Assembly (NCBI GenBank): GCA_034530615.2
Contig: JAVRCV020000007.1
Location: forward strand, 106,766-170,765
Origin: Aulosira sp. ZfuVER01
GTDB lineage: Bacteria > Cyanobacteriota > Cyanobacteriia > Cyanobacteriales > Nostocaceae
Length of the DNA stretch: 64,000 bases
Reading direction: 5' to 3'
The notes beneath the pieces were generated by a model. It was given only the letters and a program-made list of their open reading frames with translations. It had not been told where the DNA came from and made no database searches. Below, piece by piece: positions 39,079 to 45,713 of this stretch (position 1 is its first letter; each line of letters begins with the position of its first letter). The position numbers and the translations under genes are program-made.

Positions 39079-39923
39079 GAGTTAACAGTGAGCTTTACTA
39101 ATTGGTCTAACTCATACTGCATCTGACTAACAACTAACTCATAACATTCATTAACATACTCGCGATCGCACGCTGCCTCTCTGCCATAATATTCAAACTT
39201 AATCGGTGGACAAACCCGCGTGTGGATAGTTACAGGCAATGGGATATTAGGCAATGGGCCGAGTGATAATCCCCAAGGTAAGCCTAGATAAATCGGAAAT
39301 ACTACCGGATCAATTCCAAACAACCAAGGCATACCCAATTTGTGGAGTTGCTGCACAATTTCATAGCATTCAGTCAGCACAATCAGCGTATCGTGAGCAC
39401 CCGTGGAAATCACAGGTACAATTGGTACTCGCTCTCGCAGTGCTAGCTTGATAAACCCTTGTCGCCCTGCAAAATAGATTTTATTACGCAAAGAATACGG
39501 TCTAAAAACATCTTCAGCACCACCGGGATATACCAGTACACTAGCTCCAGAGCGCAAAGCAGCATAAGCCATTTTGGGATGAGCTATAACTGCGCCCGTT
39601 TTCGCTACTAGTTGTGCTATTTGTGGGGTTATCTCCCAGACTGTGGGATGCATCAAACCGTAGACTGGCCTCTCTACACCAAAACGCCGAAACCAGTCAT
39701 ACATCATCATCACCATATCAGGAGCAGCTAGTCCCCCATTGTGAGAACCAACAAATAAAACTTTCTCATAGGGTGAGACATACTCCCAACCACTAGTTTG
39801 AACTCGAAAATAGTGGTCATACAACCACCCAAGTAGTGGCATGATTGATTCGATGAATCTTGGATCTCGCTCATCCAAAGACCAACCGAGTTTTTTCTTA
39901 AGGTGATGTTTTGTGTGTGACAT
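39075..39923 (-). CDS. Acyltransferase (PlsC/DGAT2-like)
   Basis: VGSHNGG, VYPGGAED, GFIKLA, VPIVP. Confidence 0.85.
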   Translation of the reverse strand: MSHTKHHLKKKLGWSLDERDPRFIESIMPLLGWLYDHYFRVQTSGWEYVSPYEKVLFVGSHNGGLAAPDMVMMMYDWFRRFGVERPVYGLMHPTVWEITPQIAQLVAKTGAVIAHPKMAYAALRSGASVLVYPGGAEDVFRPYSLRNKIYFAGRQGFIKLALRERVPIVPVISTGAHDTLIVLTECYEIVQQLHKLGMPWLFGIDPVVFPIYLGLPWGLSLGPLPNIPLPVTIHTRVCPPIKFEYYGREAACDREYVNECYELVVSQMQYELDQLVKLTVNS

Positions 39924-40003
39924 CCAGGCATATTACCAGGATTTGTAAAGCTCAGACAATCACTCCTGTTTAGATTCCAGGACAATCTTGAAGAAGCAAG
40001 GGA

Positions 40004-40100
40004 GTGTGGGAGGTGTGGGAAGTGTGGGAAGTGTGGGAAGTGTGGGAAGTGTGGGAAGAAATGCCCAATCACCAATGACAAATGACCAATGACAAATGAC
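40004..40100. repeat. Tandem repeats (GTGTGGGAA)x~6 and (CAAATGA/CCAATGA)x~5
   Basis: Directly visible between the acyltransferase and ddl. Confidence 0.9.
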
Positions 40101-41423: not shown

Positions 41424-42098
41424 ATGGAAAATAGTCAGAGTGTACAGCACGAGCCAACCCAATCTACTGGGGCCACTCCAGATCTGACAAACAGTAAATC
41501 GAGCGCAATCAGTAGCTCACAAGTTCTGATAAATCTGCTCACACGCCATCCTTGGCTGTTGTTGATTGGGTTATCAGCAGTGTTTTTTGCAAGTGCTGTG
41601 CTTGCCTTGTATAATCTTGGTTCTGTGGGAAATGTGCAAAAAGCAGAAGAACCAGACAAAAACCTAGATGTATCAACTACAACCGTAGCCGAAGCTGAAG
41701 TAGCAATCAATACGCCCTCTGAGAATAGCAATCCTACACCTTTATGGATGGTTTTTGCGATCGCCCTCAGCTGCGCTAGTGGTTGCGTAGTAATTTTGCG
41801 AATTATCAACCGTCCAGCCAAGGCTCAAAAAGTCCACAAACATCTTAAACGCTATCCAACACGCTCAGTACAAAGCCAACCGTCTAGAGTCGAACCACAG
41901 CCTCCCAAAAATCCGCAAGTCTTTGTACCACCGCCATCATTAACACCCGTTGTCTCCATGCAATCTAGAACCAAACCGCTGATGACGGTTTTACCACCAG
42001 AACACAGCTATCGTATGGAGAAAAGCAAAGAGTCTTTGGCAGATTTAATGGATCTTCGTAAACAGAGTTCTTTATCTGCTCTTTTACGCAAATATTAA
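41424..42098 (+). CDS. Hypothetical membrane protein (2 TM)
   Basis: Two hydrophobic segments; C-terminal SLADLMDLRKQSSLSALL. Confidence 0.7.
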   Translation: MENSQSVQHEPTQSTGATPDLTNSKSSAISSSQVLINLLTRHPWLLLIGLSAVFFASAVLALYNLGSVGNVQKAEEPDKNLDVSTTTVAEAEVAINTPSENSNPTPLWMVFAIALSCASGCVVILRIINRPAKAQKVHKHLKRYPTRSVQSQPSRVEPQPPKNPQVFVPPPSLTPVVSMQSRTKPLMTVLPPEHSYRMEKSKESLADLMDLRKQSSLSALLRKY

Positions 42099-42140
42099 TC
42101 TCGTTGCAAAATAAAAATCTGTCAAACTAAAAATCTTATC

Positions 42141-42173
42141 AATAAGGGTATGGCATTTCTATACCCTTATTTG
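42141..42173 (+). terminator. Hairpin terminator
   Basis: AATAAGGGTAT-N9-ATACCCTTATT. Confidence 0.7.
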
Positions 42174-42707
42174 TGTTTATCTCATTTTTGCTAGAAAAGT
42201 TATACCAATTAAAAATTCAATATTAATATCAATTTATACCGATTTGAAAAAAAGAATGCCACAGATGAGTGGGGGAATATTTTTGTACCCTTATGAATAA
42301 TTCACGCAGACATTATCGTACTTGAAATTATTGGTATTTTTGTAAGTAGGTTAGATAGATTAATCGGACTAAAAAAGTTAAATATGAACAATTCAACAAT
42401 TTTAAAAATGCCAATTTGGCAACTAACTTACAATTATTACAGTTAAAGTGTAGAAGATAAACGACTTCAAGGGTGTTGTTATCAGGGTCTACCAAGCCAT
42501 TAAATTAATTTATTCAAGCTGTGTCATCGTAGTATTTTTTTAGTATGATAATAGGATATTTGGTTCTTCAGTACTAGTTATGCTTAAATAATAAGCTAAA
42601 TCTAATTCAATAAACTACCAGTTTCGTACATTCTCTAAGTTGCATAGTTCTTGCATAATCCAACTATTCAAATCGCTTAAAGCCTTGATAATCGGTTATT
42701 TAGAATA

Positions 42708-42751
42708 CCTTGGTAAGGGTGAGGTCACGAGTTCAATCCTCGTCACGGGCT
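42708..42751 (+). pseudogene. 3' half of tRNA-Thr(GGT); att-like fragment
   Basis: CC-TTGGTAA-GGGTG-AGGTC-ACGAGTTCAATCCTCGT-CACGGGCT: anticodon loop, T-arm and 3' acceptor strand present; D-arm and 5' acceptor strand absent. Confidence 0.85.
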
Positions 42752-42878
42752 TTGTATTTTATCTATAATAATCAACGGTAAATTAAGATTTTCAGCCTTT
42801 ACAAGAGATTTAGAGGTGCAAAAATTGAGTTATTTACTCATATTTTTGACTATTAAGTCAAAATTTTGGGTATCAAAA

Positions 42879-43535
42879 CTATCCTTCTACTTTCTCAAAA
42901 GCTTTCTTCACCCAATACCCTCTAGGCGGCTTTTCTATACCATAAGCCTTACACCACTTCTCTACAGCTTTATCAGATACACCAAAATCTCTACCGATTT
43001 GCGCTGTAGGTTTTTCCCACACCAATTTTTCTAATTTTTCTTTTGATGGCCTTTCTACCTTTCTGGTGTGAATTCTGGAGTCTGGATTAACTTTCCTAGT
43101 TGTTAAATCAACTCCAAATTCCTTGTAAGTTCGCTTGGGCGCTTCTTGAGTAAAGTTTGTAAAATCTTCCCACCAGTAAAACGGTGTAGCTGAATTAGGT
43201 ATTTGAGTAGTGATGTAGCAACCACTAAAGTTAACTGAAGGATAGACAACTTTATCGATATCAGGTAGATAAACAGCATAAAAATCAAAGTCTTCGGCTT
43301 GATATTTTTTCTGATGAGTACCACTCTTATCTACCCAGATAGTCCTATTGATTACTCTATTGTCTCCTGCATATTTAGCTTGTATCTTGTAAAATTTTTC
43401 ATCTTTGTAAGCAACAAAATCAAATGGCAAATGCTCACACACTAGTGGTGTGAGAATTAAATAGCTTTTAACTGTTAGATCTGCGATCGCTTTTATAGCA
43501 GCAATATCACCTTTACTTTTTGTATGATGCAGCAA
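42879..43535 (-). CDS. Group I intron-associated type PD-(D/E)xK endonuclease (I-Ssp6803I-like) with C-terminal HTH
   Basis: TKSKGDIA...PFDFVAY...YKIQAK...DFDFYAVY; tail LEKLVWEKPTAQIGRDFGVSDKAVEKWCK...PPRGYW; TTG start. Confidence 0.8.
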   Translation of the reverse strand: MLHHTKSKGDIAAIKAIADLTVKSYLILTPLVCEHLPFDFVAYKDEKFYKIQAKYAGDNRVINRTIWVDKSGTHQKKYQAEDFDFYAVYLPDIDKVVYPSVNFSGCYITTQIPNSATPFYWWEDFTNFTQEAPKRTYKEFGVDLTTRKVNPDSRIHTRKVERPSKEKLEKLVWEKPTAQIGRDFGVSDKAVEKWCKAYGIEKPPRGYWVKKAFEKVEG

Positions 43536-43603
43536 AACGAACCCTCAACCGATATAATTACTATATCATGTATCTTTGCTTAAGGGTTCGTATTTAATTA
43601 AAA

Positions 43604-43676
43604 CGAGCGCGGCAGGGTTCGAACCTGCGGCCGATTGCTTAGAAGGCAATTGCTCTATCCACTGAGCTACGCGCCC
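43604..43676 (-). tRNA. trnR: tRNA-Arg(UCU)
   Basis: GGGCGCGTAGCTCAGTGGATAGAGCAATTGC-CTTCTAA-GCAATCGGCCGCAGGTTCGAACCCTGCCGCGCTCG; full cloverleaf, 73 nt. Confidence 0.97.
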
Positions 43677-44032
43677 AAGATGATACTGTGGCTCCCAAAA
43701 GAGTCATCTATACAATTATATCGTTTCCCTTAGCAAGAAGCAATTGAAAATTGCAGATTTCCCAGTGGGAAGGCTAAGATGCTAGTCGCTGGTTAGTCAA
43801 TGTACACTAAAAACGAAATAAATGGACTGTTTGTTAGATATATTGTGTGGACAATGGGTTATTTGGGTGTAAGCGTCAATCACCTTTGGGTGGTGTACTG
43901 TAGATTAGCCTCTTGCGATCGCGAGGTAATGGTCTACAGTATGCTAGGTAATCGCACTCTTGGCGATGTTTTCAAATCGGATTATAGATCGCATATCGAG
44001 AACGCCCCTGTGAGGAGTTATTTGCTAGTGCC

Positions 44033-44692
44033 ATGTTTATTCTCAAACGGCAGGATGTAGAAATATCAAGCATTCAGCACCCGAAGCGGGATCAGCCAAT
44101 GCCAGTCCTCCACTATCAGGGGCAAACCTTTCGCTTGATTAGTGTTTTTAAAGCTAGCCAAGAGGAAGAAGCTAGAGCCTTGTGGAGAGAACTAACAGAT
44201 CAACGAGGTAAAGCCTGTGTTTTGCTGGAAGAACCAGACCGCTATAGCGTCTGGGGTAAAATCCGCTTAGAGCAGCTAGGTAGTGACACAGGTGGTCACA
44301 CTAAGACAGGAGTTTTTACCCAAGGCTGTATTTTGCTGCTGCAAGCTGTGTATGTAGACATTGAAGATTTTTTAGGTGCTAGGCAAGCGGCTTTATTTGA
44401 GAAAGATATTGCCGAAGTATTGCGGCAGAAGCAACTTCCGCAAGCGTCTACACCAGAAGCAGTCAAATACTTGCTCAAACAAGACCCACTCGATACAACT
44501 AGCCTGCCTCCTTGGCAAGAAAATCACATAATTATCTTTTTACAAGAACTCCACAGGCTAGGAAAAACTTATTTTGGCAATGCCAAATTCGCCCATCCAG
44601 TGGTCGATCGGTTACAAGATATGCCTGATGGAGAGCGATCGCTGTTTATCACTTGGCTAAATCAATCTCCAATGAGTAAACTGTGGCAATAG
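44033..44692 (+). CDS. Conserved cyanobacterial hypothetical protein (Npun_F0813-like)
   Basis: MFILKRQDVEI...GQTFRLISVF...GKACVLLEEP; family name from recollection. Confidence 0.7.
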   Translation: MFILKRQDVEISSIQHPKRDQPMPVLHYQGQTFRLISVFKASQEEEARALWRELTDQRGKACVLLEEPDRYSVWGKIRLEQLGSDTGGHTKTGVFTQGCILLLQAVYVDIEDFLGARQAALFEKDIAEVLRQKQLPQASTPEAVKYLLKQDPLDTTSLPPWQENHIIIFLQELHRLGKTYFGNAKFAHPVVDRLQDMPDGERSLFITWLNQSPMSKLWQ

Positions 44693-44855
44693 CATAGACA
44701 GAGTGGGAAAAACTGTTGCCACGGATAGTTGCTTTTGGCATCTGATTGTGTATTGTTTGGCAGAGCAATTGACTAGTTGGTTTTCAGATAAACTGCTTCC
44801 CACACAGTCATGCACGTCAAAATACTGCCAAAGTGCGTTTACATAGTCAAGCCTT

Positions 44856-45713
44856 ATGAGTAGTTCATACGAAAAATCCTACAGTTCTAAATCTATTTTC
44901 ACAACAGGGAACATCGTCTTGCTTGGCATTGGCTGGGCTGTACTGGCACTGCTATACTTTTTATTGTTTAGCGCTAAAGTGCCAGGGCCAGATGGTGTAG
45001 AAAGTCGTGCCGAGTGGTATGTAATTGGTACAAATATTTTTGAAGCCGTAGCTTACCTGGGTGCCAGTATCTTATGCTTGAGGAATTGGCGTAGTCCACA
45101 AATCGTCAGTGGTCGAAATGTTTGGCTCGCCATCGGCATAGGTATGGTGTCTTATTTCCTAGGGGGGATATTTTTCGGTTATACGGAAATAATCTTAAAA
45201 GAAGAACCGGATGTTTCTATTGGCGATGTGTTTTTTGTAATAAATTATCTGTTTGTTGGTGTAGGCATGATTTTGGCAGCGGCTCATAGGCGAATCAATC
45301 TCGAAAAATGGCAATGGCTAATTGTTTTAGCAATTGGCGTGTTTGGTAGTTTGTTAGCCTGGTGGATTTCGCTGCAACAGACAAAATCTTTAGATTTGCT
45401 AGGCACTGTTTTGAATTGGTTTTATGTCGTTAGCGATGTAGCTATTTTAATTATTGCCACTACTTTGCTATTAGCCTTTTGGGGAGGCAGAGTTGCCCAA
45501 TCTTGGAGAATGATTGCAGCCGCAGCGTTTTCGCTCTACATTGCAGATATGTGGTTTAAATACGCCACCAATTCGATTCCCAATTATCAAAGTGGAGAGA
45601 TGCTAGAAGTGTTTTGGGTTTGGAGTGGAGTTTTATTTGGTATGGGCGCTGTTTTGGAATATGACGCATCATTGAGCCGATCGCGGCGGGAGCGAGGAAA
45701 AAAACGAGCTTAG
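44856..45713 (+). CDS. Multi-pass hypothetical membrane protein
   Basis: About eight hydrophobic segments. Confidence 0.75.
   Translation: MSSSYEKSYSSKSIFTTGNIVLLGIGWAVLALLYFLLFSAKVPGPDGVESRAEWYVIGTNIFEAVAYLGASILCLRNWRSPQIVSGRNVWLAIGIGMVSYFLGGIFFGYTEIILKEEPDVSIGDVFFVINYLFVGVGMILAAAHRRINLEKWQWLIVLAIGVFGSLLAWWISLQQTKSLDLLGTVLNWFYVVSDVAILIIATTLLLAFWGGRVAQSWRMIAAAAFSLYIADMWFKYATNSIPNYQSGEMLEVFWVWSGVLFGMGAVLEYDASLSRSRRERGKKRA

Follow-up and report, generated by a model that had tools for sequence, protein, structure and literature searches.

A free-standing I-Ssp6803I-type nuclease gene with an HTH tail, linked to tRNA-Arg(UCU) in Aulosira and its relatives

The window, a 64,000-nt stretch of the Aulosira sp. 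ZfuVER01 genome, contains on its minus strand a tRNA-Arg(UCU) gene followed by an ORF of 218 aa with a TTG start (Table 1). The initial annotation had described a PD-(D/E)xK ORF beginning 68 nt after a co-oriented, uninterrupted tRNA-Arg(UCU), and both ARAGORN and Rfam bear this out: the two genes lie on one strand with a gap of 67–68 nt. Rfam places the tRNA at 43604..43676 (minus strand) as a full-length, intron-free match of 71.1 bits, and a scan of positions 41500–45000 with E-values up to 1 returned the tRNA alone and no intron. With its tRNA-Arg full length and unsplit, the ORF does not belong among the intron-encoded homing endonucleases, which carry the I- prefix. The anticodon stem of this tRNA-Arg is of the ATTGC/GCAAT type, the one accompanying class A nucleases.

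Table 1. Positions in the window of the nuclease ORF, its domains and the neighbouring features.
Feature	Position	Strand	Basis or remark
Whole ORF	42879..43535	-	218 aa, single copy in this genome
Nuclease domain, residues 1–130, PD-(D/E)xK fold of I-Ssp6803I type	43146..43535	-	Pfam, Foldseek, conserved residues
Linker, residues about 131–157	43065..43145	-	AlphaFold model; residues 148–158 of low confidence
C-terminal three-helix HTH module, residues about 158–212	42900..43064	-	Common to HNH homing endonucleases of tRNA arrays and phage tRNA clusters
tRNA-Arg(UCU), uninterrupted	43603..43677	-	ARAGORN; Rfam RF00005
Sigma-70-like promoter match just 5' of tRNA-Arg	43680..43707	-	Consensus match only, 9/12 hexamer positions
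Spacer hairpin, 12-bp outer stem	43537..43591	-	Fold -20.6 kcal/mol, z -2.8
3' 46 nt of tRNA-Thr(GGU), neighbour outside the nuclease unit	42708..42753	+	Rearrangement or integration scar

The profile search that had been proposed for this protein gave a clear result, with Pfam PF11645 (PDDEXK_5) matching residues 3–103 (E = 7.7e-20, 71.8 bits, curated cut-off 26.1). The sole PDB match by sequence was 2OST, the structure of I-Ssp6803I, and its chain 2ost_B was also the best Foldseek match of the predicted model (E = 1e-7, 127 columns, target-normalised TM 0.65), with Hjc resolvases as runners-up at E about 0.02. Identity to 2OST over the fold alignment is 24–26%. Residues D39, Q52 and K54, which we take to be the catalytic positions (D ... 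Q-x-K), show no variation in 30 homologues, and the same residues stand at the aligned positions of 2OST. An extra C-terminal HTH had also been noted from the sequence, and the AlphaFold model (pLDDT 85.3) agrees, with three helices within residues 165–198 and another at 207–212; Pfam HTH_28 gives a weak match (E = 0.13), and the module is highly conserved among homologues. Since the Pfam search returned PDDEXK_5 and the weak HTH_28 only, the protein carries neither a GIY-YIG domain nor an HNH motif in that search, and NCBIfam profiles gave nothing meaningful. Judged by its sequence, the ORF protein is an intron-less I-Ssp6803I-type nuclease with a flexible linker and an HTH tail; the suggestion of a free-standing enzyme of this type holds up through the PF11645 match and the tRNA without an intron.

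The spacer between tRNA and ORF has features of its own. The 3' arm of its hairpin contains a GAGG-like stretch, the T-run after the stem leads into the TTG start codon, and the loop contains an extended -10-like motif of the TGnTA type that is conserved among relatives. These elements could serve as a promoter and an SD, and we infer that the hairpin may control expression. Across 44 relatives, 85.6% of the cells in the stem are paired, against at most 52.5% when the stem is slid. RNAalifold predicted no consensus structure on the 44 spacers and covariation in the same relatives was not above shuffles, so we describe the hairpin as a conserved stem only. A simple terminator scan called none, because the hairpin loop exceeds the length that its rule allows. 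Promoter-like sites in the region, including the match upstream of the tRNA, were not more numerous than in shuffled sequence. Matches in four metatranscriptomes were tRNA parts or contigs of relatives, none with this allele. One of these relatives has a contig that covers both tRNA-Arg and the ORF, a weak hint, with DNA carry-over possible.

As the ORF starts inside a terminator-like hairpin, its expression could be coupled to transcription of the tRNA. This start position would suit a DNA-binding protein whose nuclease is dead or irrelevant, the HTH regulating transcription of tRNA-Arg or a neighbour and the nuclease fold serving as a scaffold; the high conservation of the HTH module fits as well, and so, weakly and with the same caution over DNA carry-over, does the metatranscriptome contig. 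We nevertheless consider such a regulator very unlikely: D39, Q52 and K54 are invariant in the 30 homologues and the N-terminal half is equally constrained, phage homologues beside tRNA-Arg(UCU) have no HTH tail, and a tail of identical type is found on HNH nucleases.

Beyond the other end of the ORF lies the tRNA-Thr fragment, convergent to it. An intact tRNA-Thr(GGU) is present on contig C23, and the fragment matches its 3' 46 nt with 100% identity. The ORF had been reported to end about 130 nt from this fragment, and the distance between fragment end and ORF stop is indeed 125 nt. Many integrases targeting tRNA genes break homology in the anticodon loop, and the homology with relatives ends at 42708, in the anticodon loop of the tRNA-Thr. 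Were this half-gene an att site, the nuclease might have arrived as cargo of an island, and both the nearness of the fragment and the place of the break would fit. However, in 53 of 80 relatives the tRNA-Arg and tRNA-Thr/Tyr genes on either side of the nuclease are intact. Moreover, the 125 nt between ORF and fragment are homologous to the usual region downstream of tRNA-Thr, which places the breakpoint at the end of the fragment that points away from the nuclease. We noticed no integrase-like ORF next to the fragment or the intact tRNA-Thr copy (on C23, ORFs of at least 120 aa within 10 kb were judged by their first residues). We rejected the island reading, which seems to us scarcely credible, on the synteny with relatives and the homologous 125 nt. 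From the homology break in the anticodon loop and the synteny in 53/80 relatives, the sequence comparison indicates that the fragment is a separate event and no part of the nuclease unit.

Tabulating tRNA adjacency among homologues, another of the checks proposed initially, gave a consistent picture in close relatives. A co-oriented tRNA-Arg(UCU) lies about 60–78 nt upstream of the nuclease in 78 of 80 related genome loci, and adjacency at the same spacing and orientation in so many loci is not chance. Two full-length copies lie within long tRNA arrays, 55–66 nt behind an array tRNA-Arg(UCU). Homologues consisting of the nuclease domain only follow tRNA-Arg(UCU) in Synechococcus phage Sf-FR1 (by 67 nt) and Acinetobacter phage Herod (by 21 nt), and two of eight viral contigs show the tRNA-Arg(UCU) pattern. 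Among distant metagenome loci with enough upstream DNA (n = 73), tRNA-Arg(UCU) was co-oriented in twenty-five and on the opposite strand in five, and thirty-one had no tRNA within 250 nt upstream. One distant PDDEXK_5 subfamily (29–32% identity) follows tRNA-Ser(UGA) instead, in 2/2 loci. The chromosomal nuclease occupies a fixed site in single copy across several Nostocales families; no partner genes are conserved near it, and the downstream DNA is highly variable among relatives. Linkage to tRNA-Arg(UCU) is a fixed feature of this nuclease in chromosomes, tRNA arrays and phages.

The HTH module is found on other nucleases too. It is fused to HNH nucleases in the gaps of cyanobacterial tRNA arrays, where ORFs with the same tail match HNH or HNH_3, and over residues about 150–215 it is 65–79% identical to these array HNH proteins. 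It also matches the C-terminal end of phrog_15471 (E = 1.4e-10), and of seven phage HNH genes with the module that we checked, six have a tRNA no more than 91 nt away. HNH_3 is present in fifty-seven, and PDDEXK_5 in six, of the 150 best of 6800 representatives.

Presence of the nuclease at this locus is patchy. Across 53 Nostocaceae genera, twelve have a full-length gene, eleven have fragments or an interrupted copy, and thirty have no nuclease. The 127 Nostoc species genomes divide into 77 with uninterrupted DNA matches, 27 with truncated genes, stubs or spacer only, 20 empty sites, and 3 split by contig ends. The left breakpoints of empty sites vary in their distance from the tRNA start, between 80 and 203 nt. 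All twelve Nostoc empty sites that we examined carry a tRNA allele or a spacer remnant of class A or B, so they look like losses; they resemble deletions or replacements with differing breakpoints, and no never-invaded target allele was found among them. In Nostoc class A, dS is 0.33 for the nuclease and 0.25 for the flanking gene, and dN/dS of the nuclease is 0.07. A dS no lower than that of the flank, together with this dN/dS, looks like long vertical descent under selection and not like recent sweeps. By halves of the protein, dN/dS is 0.064 (N-terminal) versus 0.082 (C-terminal). Nuclease and flank distances in class A have a Spearman correlation of 0.16, to be read beside values of only 0.31 and -0.02 between halves of the same gene. 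The nuclease is under purifying selection despite its patchy presence and many independent decay states, and the sequence comparisons support a gene that behaves like a dispensable, recombining cassette.

Low dN/dS and a divergence like that of the flanking host gene would also be compatible with a domesticated nuclease kept for the benefit of its host. Such an enzyme would cut incoming foreign tRNA-Arg(UCU) alleles, whether in phage tRNA clusters, plasmid-borne tRNA arrays or the DNA of other strains, while its own stem allele was immune, and would serve the host in exclusion or defence. Purifying selection and a weak PADLOC match support this indirectly. The single copy at a fixed chromosomal site in several Nostocales families agrees with this, as do the unusually variable anticodon stem of tRNA-Arg and the relatives with tRNA-Arg(UCU) partners held by phages and mobile arrays, which would be natural targets. 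Still, we think host benefit unlikely. The gene has been lost often and independently, and an intact copy is missing from 30/53 genera and, in Nostoc, from about 40% of species genomes; it has no conserved partner genes and lies beside highly variable DNA; its match in PADLOC is weak and is to PDLC03700, 'HEase homing endonuclease' (E = 3.4e-4, 18.8 bits); and both of its domains come from families known in homing endonucleases.

Comparing loci in pairs, we found 327 pairs with flank identity of at least 92% and nuclease identity of at most 80%, and none with the reverse pattern. In three Nostoc pairs, identity drops from 98–100% to 50–75% from within tRNA-Arg to about codon 115 and then recovers. 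The divergent tract comprises the tRNA-Arg anticodon stem, the spacer and the nuclease domain, swapped as one unit. Between classes, dS is about 2.0 in the N-terminal half, 0.34 in the C-terminal half and 0.26 in the flank. The mosaic of classes A and B may go back to one old recombination event, perhaps unrelated to nuclease action, that has been inherited since. In 61 loci, tRNA-Arg(UCU) has six different anticodon stems, and the neighbouring tRNA-Thr and tRNA-Tyr keep a single stem in 58/61 and 60/61 loci, respectively. A comparison of tRNA-Arg alleles had been suggested at the outset, and these alleles do differ between nuclease classes, a class B allele having an ACGGA stem. Every anticodon-stem type is represented among the empty sites, so the stem alone cannot tell carriers from non-carriers.

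On balance we favour, with modest confidence, the reading of the ORF as a free-standing, SegB-like homing nuclease that targets tRNA-Arg(UCU) genes. By analogy with I-Ssp6803I and T4 SegB, the enzyme would recognise DNA in or beside the tRNA-Arg(UCU) of alleles that have no nuclease or one of another class, and would make a double-strand break there. Repair of the break by recombination with a carrier would copy the nuclease gene and the adjoining part of the tRNA, and the differing anticodon stem would protect the carrier's own tRNA allele. That the enzyme cleaves DNA, where it does so, that the linked allele is immune and that homing takes place are all inferred from these analogies. Several observations count against homing. 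The dS of the class A nuclease is not below that of the flank and resembles vertical descent; the empty Nostoc sites look like losses, with no never-invaded allele found, and empty sites occur with all stem types. In addition, the A/B mosaic may be that single old event, 31/73 distant relatives have no tRNA inside 250 nt upstream, and hairpin covariation does not exceed that of shuffles.

A more speculative possibility, which we put forward tentatively and with some doubt, is a target-immunity arms race between the nuclease and the tRNA-Arg(UCU) anticodon stem: each class would cut tRNA-Arg genes with other stems and be accompanied by a stem that is compensated and resistant. Rapid compensatory evolution of an essential tRNA would in that case be driven by a selfish (or defensive) nuclease. 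In a wider version of the arms race, the HTH tail would mark a pan-bacterial guild with HNH or PD-(D/E)xK heads, each head lineage with its own tRNA, and the tRNA arrays of phages, plasmids and chromosomes would owe their shuffling, assembly and spread to this guild.

To our knowledge, a single intron-encoded enzyme and its close relatives represent the PD-(D/E)xK type among known homing endonucleases. The homologues described here form a large, well-conserved, free-standing branch of the I-Ssp6803I family that has acquired the DNA-binding tail carried by HNH endonucleases of tRNA clusters. Whether in chromosomes, in mobile tRNA arrays or in phages, this branch is tied to one tRNA gene. If these enzymes cut tRNA-Arg genes, this would explain the large variation in the anticodon stem of tRNA-Arg(UCU) among close relatives and provide a concrete mechanism for the rearrangement and spread of tRNA arrays. 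The nucleases used for engineering would also gain a compact, modular member whose natural target is long. If host benefit is instead the reason why the gene is kept, a homing nuclease would here have become an exclusion factor.

I-Ssp6803I is encoded by the group I intron in the tRNA-fMet gene of Synechocystis and targets tRNA-fMet genes in their anticodon region. The window protein shares with it (2OST, PF11645) the nuclease fold, the family and the aligned D...QxK positions, and both are cyanobacterial and tied to a tRNA gene. In contrast to I-Ssp6803I, the window ORF lies outside any intron, is partnered with tRNA-Arg(UCU) rather than tRNA-fMet, and has an additional linker and HTH module of about 90 residues. 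True I-Ssp6803I-like proteins in other cyanobacteria are 172–185 aa long (PF11645, E = 8.8e-55) and tail-less. I-Ssp6803I reads its 23-bp pseudo-palindromic target as a tetramer (PMC3384342).

T4 SegB recognises a T-psi-C motif of tRNA and promotes the inheritance of the T4 tRNA region, both of its own gene and of the flanking tRNA genes (PMC2330249). Like SegB, the window gene encodes a free-standing nuclease among or beside tRNA genes, and the mosaic tract of its family, extending into the tRNA gene, is reminiscent of flanking markers that are co-converted. The window protein is not a member of the SegB family, however, being PD-(D/E)xK where SegB is GIY-YIG; SegB resides in the tRNA gene cluster of a phage and the window ORF in a bacterial chromosome, and the activity of SegB has been demonstrated whereas that of the window protein is predicted. 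A stand-alone ORF between conserved genes, polymorphic in its presence among relatives, is also what free-standing homing endonucleases of the Seg/Mob kind look like.

Santamaria-Gomez et al. (2021, PMC8421152) described genes for HNH homing endonucleases that are associated with cyanobacterial L-arrays. The available text of that paper mentions the HNH type only, and the titles, abstracts and passages covered by our literature search, which brought up tRNA-array HNH endonucleases, SegB and I-Ssp6803I, contained no description of a PD-(D/E)xK gene linked to tRNA-Arg(UCU). Unlike the L-array HNH proteins (all8564 type), the window protein has a PD-(D/E)xK catalytic domain without HNH, and its gene lies at a single chromosomal tRNA-Arg gene outside arrays; the 28-tRNA array of its own genome (contig C32), which includes a copy of tRNA-Arg(UCU), has no such ORF. 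The two kinds of gene are nonetheless alike in carrying the same C-terminal HTH module (65–79% identity) and in starting a few tens of nucleotides past a co-oriented tRNA gene, and L-arrays also contain full-length homologues of the window protein.

The initial annotation described a PD-(D/E)xK ORF with an extra C-terminal helix-turn-helix (HTH) module, lying 68 nt downstream of a co-oriented, uninterrupted tRNA-Arg(UCU) and ending about 130 nt from a convergent tRNA-Thr fragment. This description was accurate in all particulars. ARAGORN and Rfam both report a single tRNA, tRNA-Arg(UCU), on the window's minus strand, and the tRNA-Thr(GGU) fragment lies 125 nt beyond the ORF stop. The nuclease gene is present in a single copy in this genome. 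Homology to all relatives ends exactly at 42708, within the tRNA-Thr anticodon loop. The sole intact tRNA-Thr(GGU) of the genome is found on another contig together with tRNA-Tyr; ordinary-looking genes follow this pair, and no integrase was noticed beside it. The half-gene resembles a scar left at tRNA-Thr by an integrase-type event or by rearrangement. A similar lone tRNA-Thr fragment is found at an Amazonocrinis locus (L034). Elsewhere in the window, a mechanical ORF translates to FPH repeats, indicating a short tandem DNA repeat around 40000-40080.

Positions of the features discussed (window coordinates unless a contig is named)
Feature	Position	Strand	Remarks
tRNA-Arg(UCU), uninterrupted	43603-43677	minus	ARAGORN; Rfam 71.1 bits, full length
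Nuclease ORF, 218 codons, TTG start	43535 to 42879	minus	67-68 nt 3' of tRNA-Arg(UCU)
tRNA-Thr(GGU) 3' half, 46 nt	42708-42753	plus	identical to the genome's intact copy
ORF translating to FPH repeats	39728-40081	minus	
Intact tRNA-Tyr/tRNA-Thr pair	source genome (G000), contig C23:81645-81887		
Compact tRNA array	source genome (G000), contig C32:178953-181569	one strand	28 tRNA genes
Split Nostocaceae nuclease gene (L127)	G417:C2:2793000-2797900		

The spacer between the tRNA and the ORF contains a predicted hairpin (-20.6 kcal/mol, z -2.8) whose outer stem is 12 bp long. A GAGG-like stretch in its 3' arm lies ~7 nt before the TTG start, and a T-run past the stem extends into this codon. Across 44 relatives the stem is conserved, with 85.6% of cells paired compared to at most 52.5% in slid controls; covariation across these relatives was not above that of shuffles. 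From these features we infer a putative tRNA terminator that would also mask the ribosome-binding site. The loop carries a conserved TGnTA-type motif and possibly a candidate promoter.

The nuclease domain (the head, residues 1-130) matches the Pfam family PDDEXK_5 over residues 3-103 (E 7.7e-20), and I-Ssp6803I (2OST) was the only solved protein retrieved by sequence. An AlphaFold model built from 30 homologues (mean pLDDT 85.3) also has 2OST as its top structural match (E 1e-7, 127 aligned columns), with archaeal Hjc resolvases next and far behind. Residues D39, Q52, and K54 are the same at the aligned 2OST positions and invariant across the 30 homologues. Beyond a poorly predicted linker (residues 148-158), the HTH tail is modeled as three helices at 165-198 followed by a fourth, short one. 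A match to the tail (E 1.4e-10) lies at the C-terminal end of phrog_15471, a phage 'HNH endonuclease' family.

The initial annotation had suggested tabulating how often homologs abut tRNA genes, and the association was borne out. The 80 best-matching reference-genome loci all come from Nostocales. In every one but L064 and L075 (78 of 80), a tRNA-Arg(UCU) of the same orientation ends ~60-78 nt upstream of the ORF, and in 53 of the 80 a convergent tRNA-Thr(GGU)/tRNA-Tyr pair follows 37 nt to ~2.6 kb downstream of it. Outside Nostocaceae, both full-length homologs examined sit within long tRNA gene arrays, 55-66 nt 3' of the array's own tRNA-Arg(UCU). Homologs consisting of the nuclease domain only follow tRNA-Arg(UCU) by 67 nt in Synechococcus phage Sf-FR1 and by 21 nt in Acinetobacter phage Herod; across viral contigs, this arrangement occurs in two of eight, and a different tRNA precedes the homolog in two more. 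In a more distant sample of 80 metagenome loci, 73 had at least 150 nt of upstream DNA. Of these, twenty-five have a co-oriented tRNA-Arg(UCU) within 51-118 nt, five have it on the opposite strand, twelve have a different tRNA, and thirty-one have no tRNA within 250 nt upstream. A separate PDDEXK_5 subfamily (29-32% identity) with the same tail follows tRNA-Ser(UGA) in 2/2 loci. Given these surveys, the tRNA partner goes with the nuclease head and not with the tail.

Two further observations concern related genes and arrays. The compact array on contig C32 of the source genome has no protein-coding gaps and includes a second, very different tRNA-Arg(UCU). True I-Ssp6803I-like proteins of 172-185 aa without the HTH tail were found at three loci (L116-L118, in genomes G357, G281, and G218; PF11645 match of L116, E 8.8e-55). 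ARAGORN found no tRNA within 2.5 kb of them, though they may lie in tRNA-fMet genes that contain an intron, a kind that ARAGORN would not detect.

The tail has a wider distribution. In ORFs of 230-300 aa, a profile search across the order (401 genomes) matched just the C-terminal 65 residues (E ~1e-30); these ORFs occupy 0.8-1 kb gaps in tRNA arrays, in the same orientation as the tRNAs, and their N-terminal parts are HNH nucleases. In the arrays of other cyanobacteria (L105-L115), each ~0.8-1 kb gap contains an HNH ORF with the tail module, beginning 32-102 nt after a tRNA. tRNA-Leu(CAG) precedes one type of gap ORF in 2/2 loci, and tRNA-Ala(UGC) precedes another type in 2/2. The module, at 50-65% identity, also ends HNH genes of Bacillus, Salmonella, Pseudomonas, Stenotrophomonas, Erwinia, and Vibrio phages. 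Six of the seven phage genes examined have a tRNA gene within 91 nt, and five of these six are downstream of and co-oriented with it. A library of 1.84 billion representatives contains 6800 proteins with the module (E <=0.001); among the best 150, fifty-seven match HNH_3 and six match PDDEXK_5. The tail is a homing-endonuclease module. Some proteins of 480-800 aa (P0139, P0145, P0151, P0156, P0196) carry 5 to 9 tandem HTH modules.

Nostoc nucleases fall into two allele classes, with 86-89% (class A) and 72-73% (class B) identity to the window's protein, itself class A. We compared nucleases and upstream flanks across 70 loci with both. In 327 locus pairs, flanks at least 92% identical accompany nucleases at most 80% identical (the extreme being 99.7% against 78.3%), and no pair showed the reverse pattern of divergent flank and similar nuclease. 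Sliding identity along three of these pairs is 98-100% for the flanking DNA, falls to 82% within tRNA-Arg and to 50-75% over the spacer and the first ~115 codons, then recovers to 92-96% over the rest of the gene and 98-100% past it. Between the classes, synonymous divergence is ~2.0 for the N-terminal half of the gene, 0.34 for the C-terminal half, and 0.26 for the flank. In the nuclease-domain tree, class A forms a clade of window, Nostoc A, Calothrix, Tolypothrix, and Scytonema sequences (support 100/99), and the class B sequences of Nostoc fall together with Cylindrospermum (94/93). The tRNA-Arg difference between classes is almost all in the anticodon stem (ATTGC/GCAAT in class A, ACGGA/TCCGT in class B). 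At 61 control loci with all three tRNAs, tRNA-Arg(UCU) has twenty distinct sequences and six anticodon stems; tRNA-Thr keeps a single stem in 58 and tRNA-Tyr in 60. The stem kept by tRNA-Tyr(GUA) is the same 5-bp stem as in class B tRNA-Arg, which may reflect coincidence or exchange between neighboring genes.

Only 8 of the 401 genomes in the order-wide sample, this one included, have a full-length match. Across 53 Nostocaceae genera, the tRNA-Arg locus has a full or nearly full gene in twelve and fragments, frameshifts, or insertions in eleven; the other thirty have no detectable nuclease gene, and one of these belongs to the same genus as the window. A manual count over 127 Nostoc species genomes gave 77 that match at the DNA level without interruption through the gene; the others are truncated or interrupted copies (nine), 5' stubs (nine), spacer only (nine), empty sites (twenty), and loci split by contig ends (three). 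At twelve degraded or empty Nostoc sites, the points where homology to filled loci stops fall at ten distinct distances (80 to 203 nt) from the start of the tRNA, and each site retains a class A or B tRNA or spacer. These look like independent losses rather than virgin target alleles. At one Nostocaceae locus (L127), the gene is apparently split after ~codon 40 by ~2.8 kb of inserted DNA, its two parts matching query positions 977-1325 and 1330-1930.

Premature stops or frameshifts occur in 5/78 close relatives, and intact genes are under strong purifying selection (dN/dS ~0.07, compared to 0.10 for the neighboring host gene). Such constraint, the vertical-looking divergence, and the failure to find a virgin target allele all speak against an element that is purely selfish and spreading at present. 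They leave room for the nuclease being kept in a host-beneficial exclusion role, though we consider this unlikely. The gene is built entirely from homing-endonuclease parts and behaves like a dispensable cassette fixed to a single tRNA gene.

Both the PD-(D/E)xK homing family and free-standing homing endonucleases next to tRNA genes are already known. Our literature search, which covered titles, abstracts, and selected passages, found no description of the head-tail fusion, of a specific tie between such a nuclease and tRNA-Arg(UCU), of its conserved chromosomal location, or of the co-varying tRNA anticodon stem. The gene for T4 SegB is reported to lie in a phage tRNA cluster; the enzyme recognizes a tRNA-gene motif and promotes inheritance of itself and neighboring tRNA genes (PMC2330249). 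The same action has been proposed for the HNH homing endonuclease genes described in association with L-arrays of cyanobacteria (PMC8421152), and HNH genes have been noted within phage tRNA clusters (PMC6409571). I-Ssp6803I is described as a tetramer reading a 23-bp pseudo-palindrome (PMC3384342); a tRNA anticodon stem-loop is a sequence of this kind. Based on these precedents, the homing-type parts, and the tRNA-bound cassette, the most likely reading is that the nuclease would cut other tRNA-Arg(UCU) alleles, within the tRNA gene or next to it, and that the nuclease gene would be copied together with the adjoining tRNA segment. The closest working model for the window's nuclease is T4 SegB.
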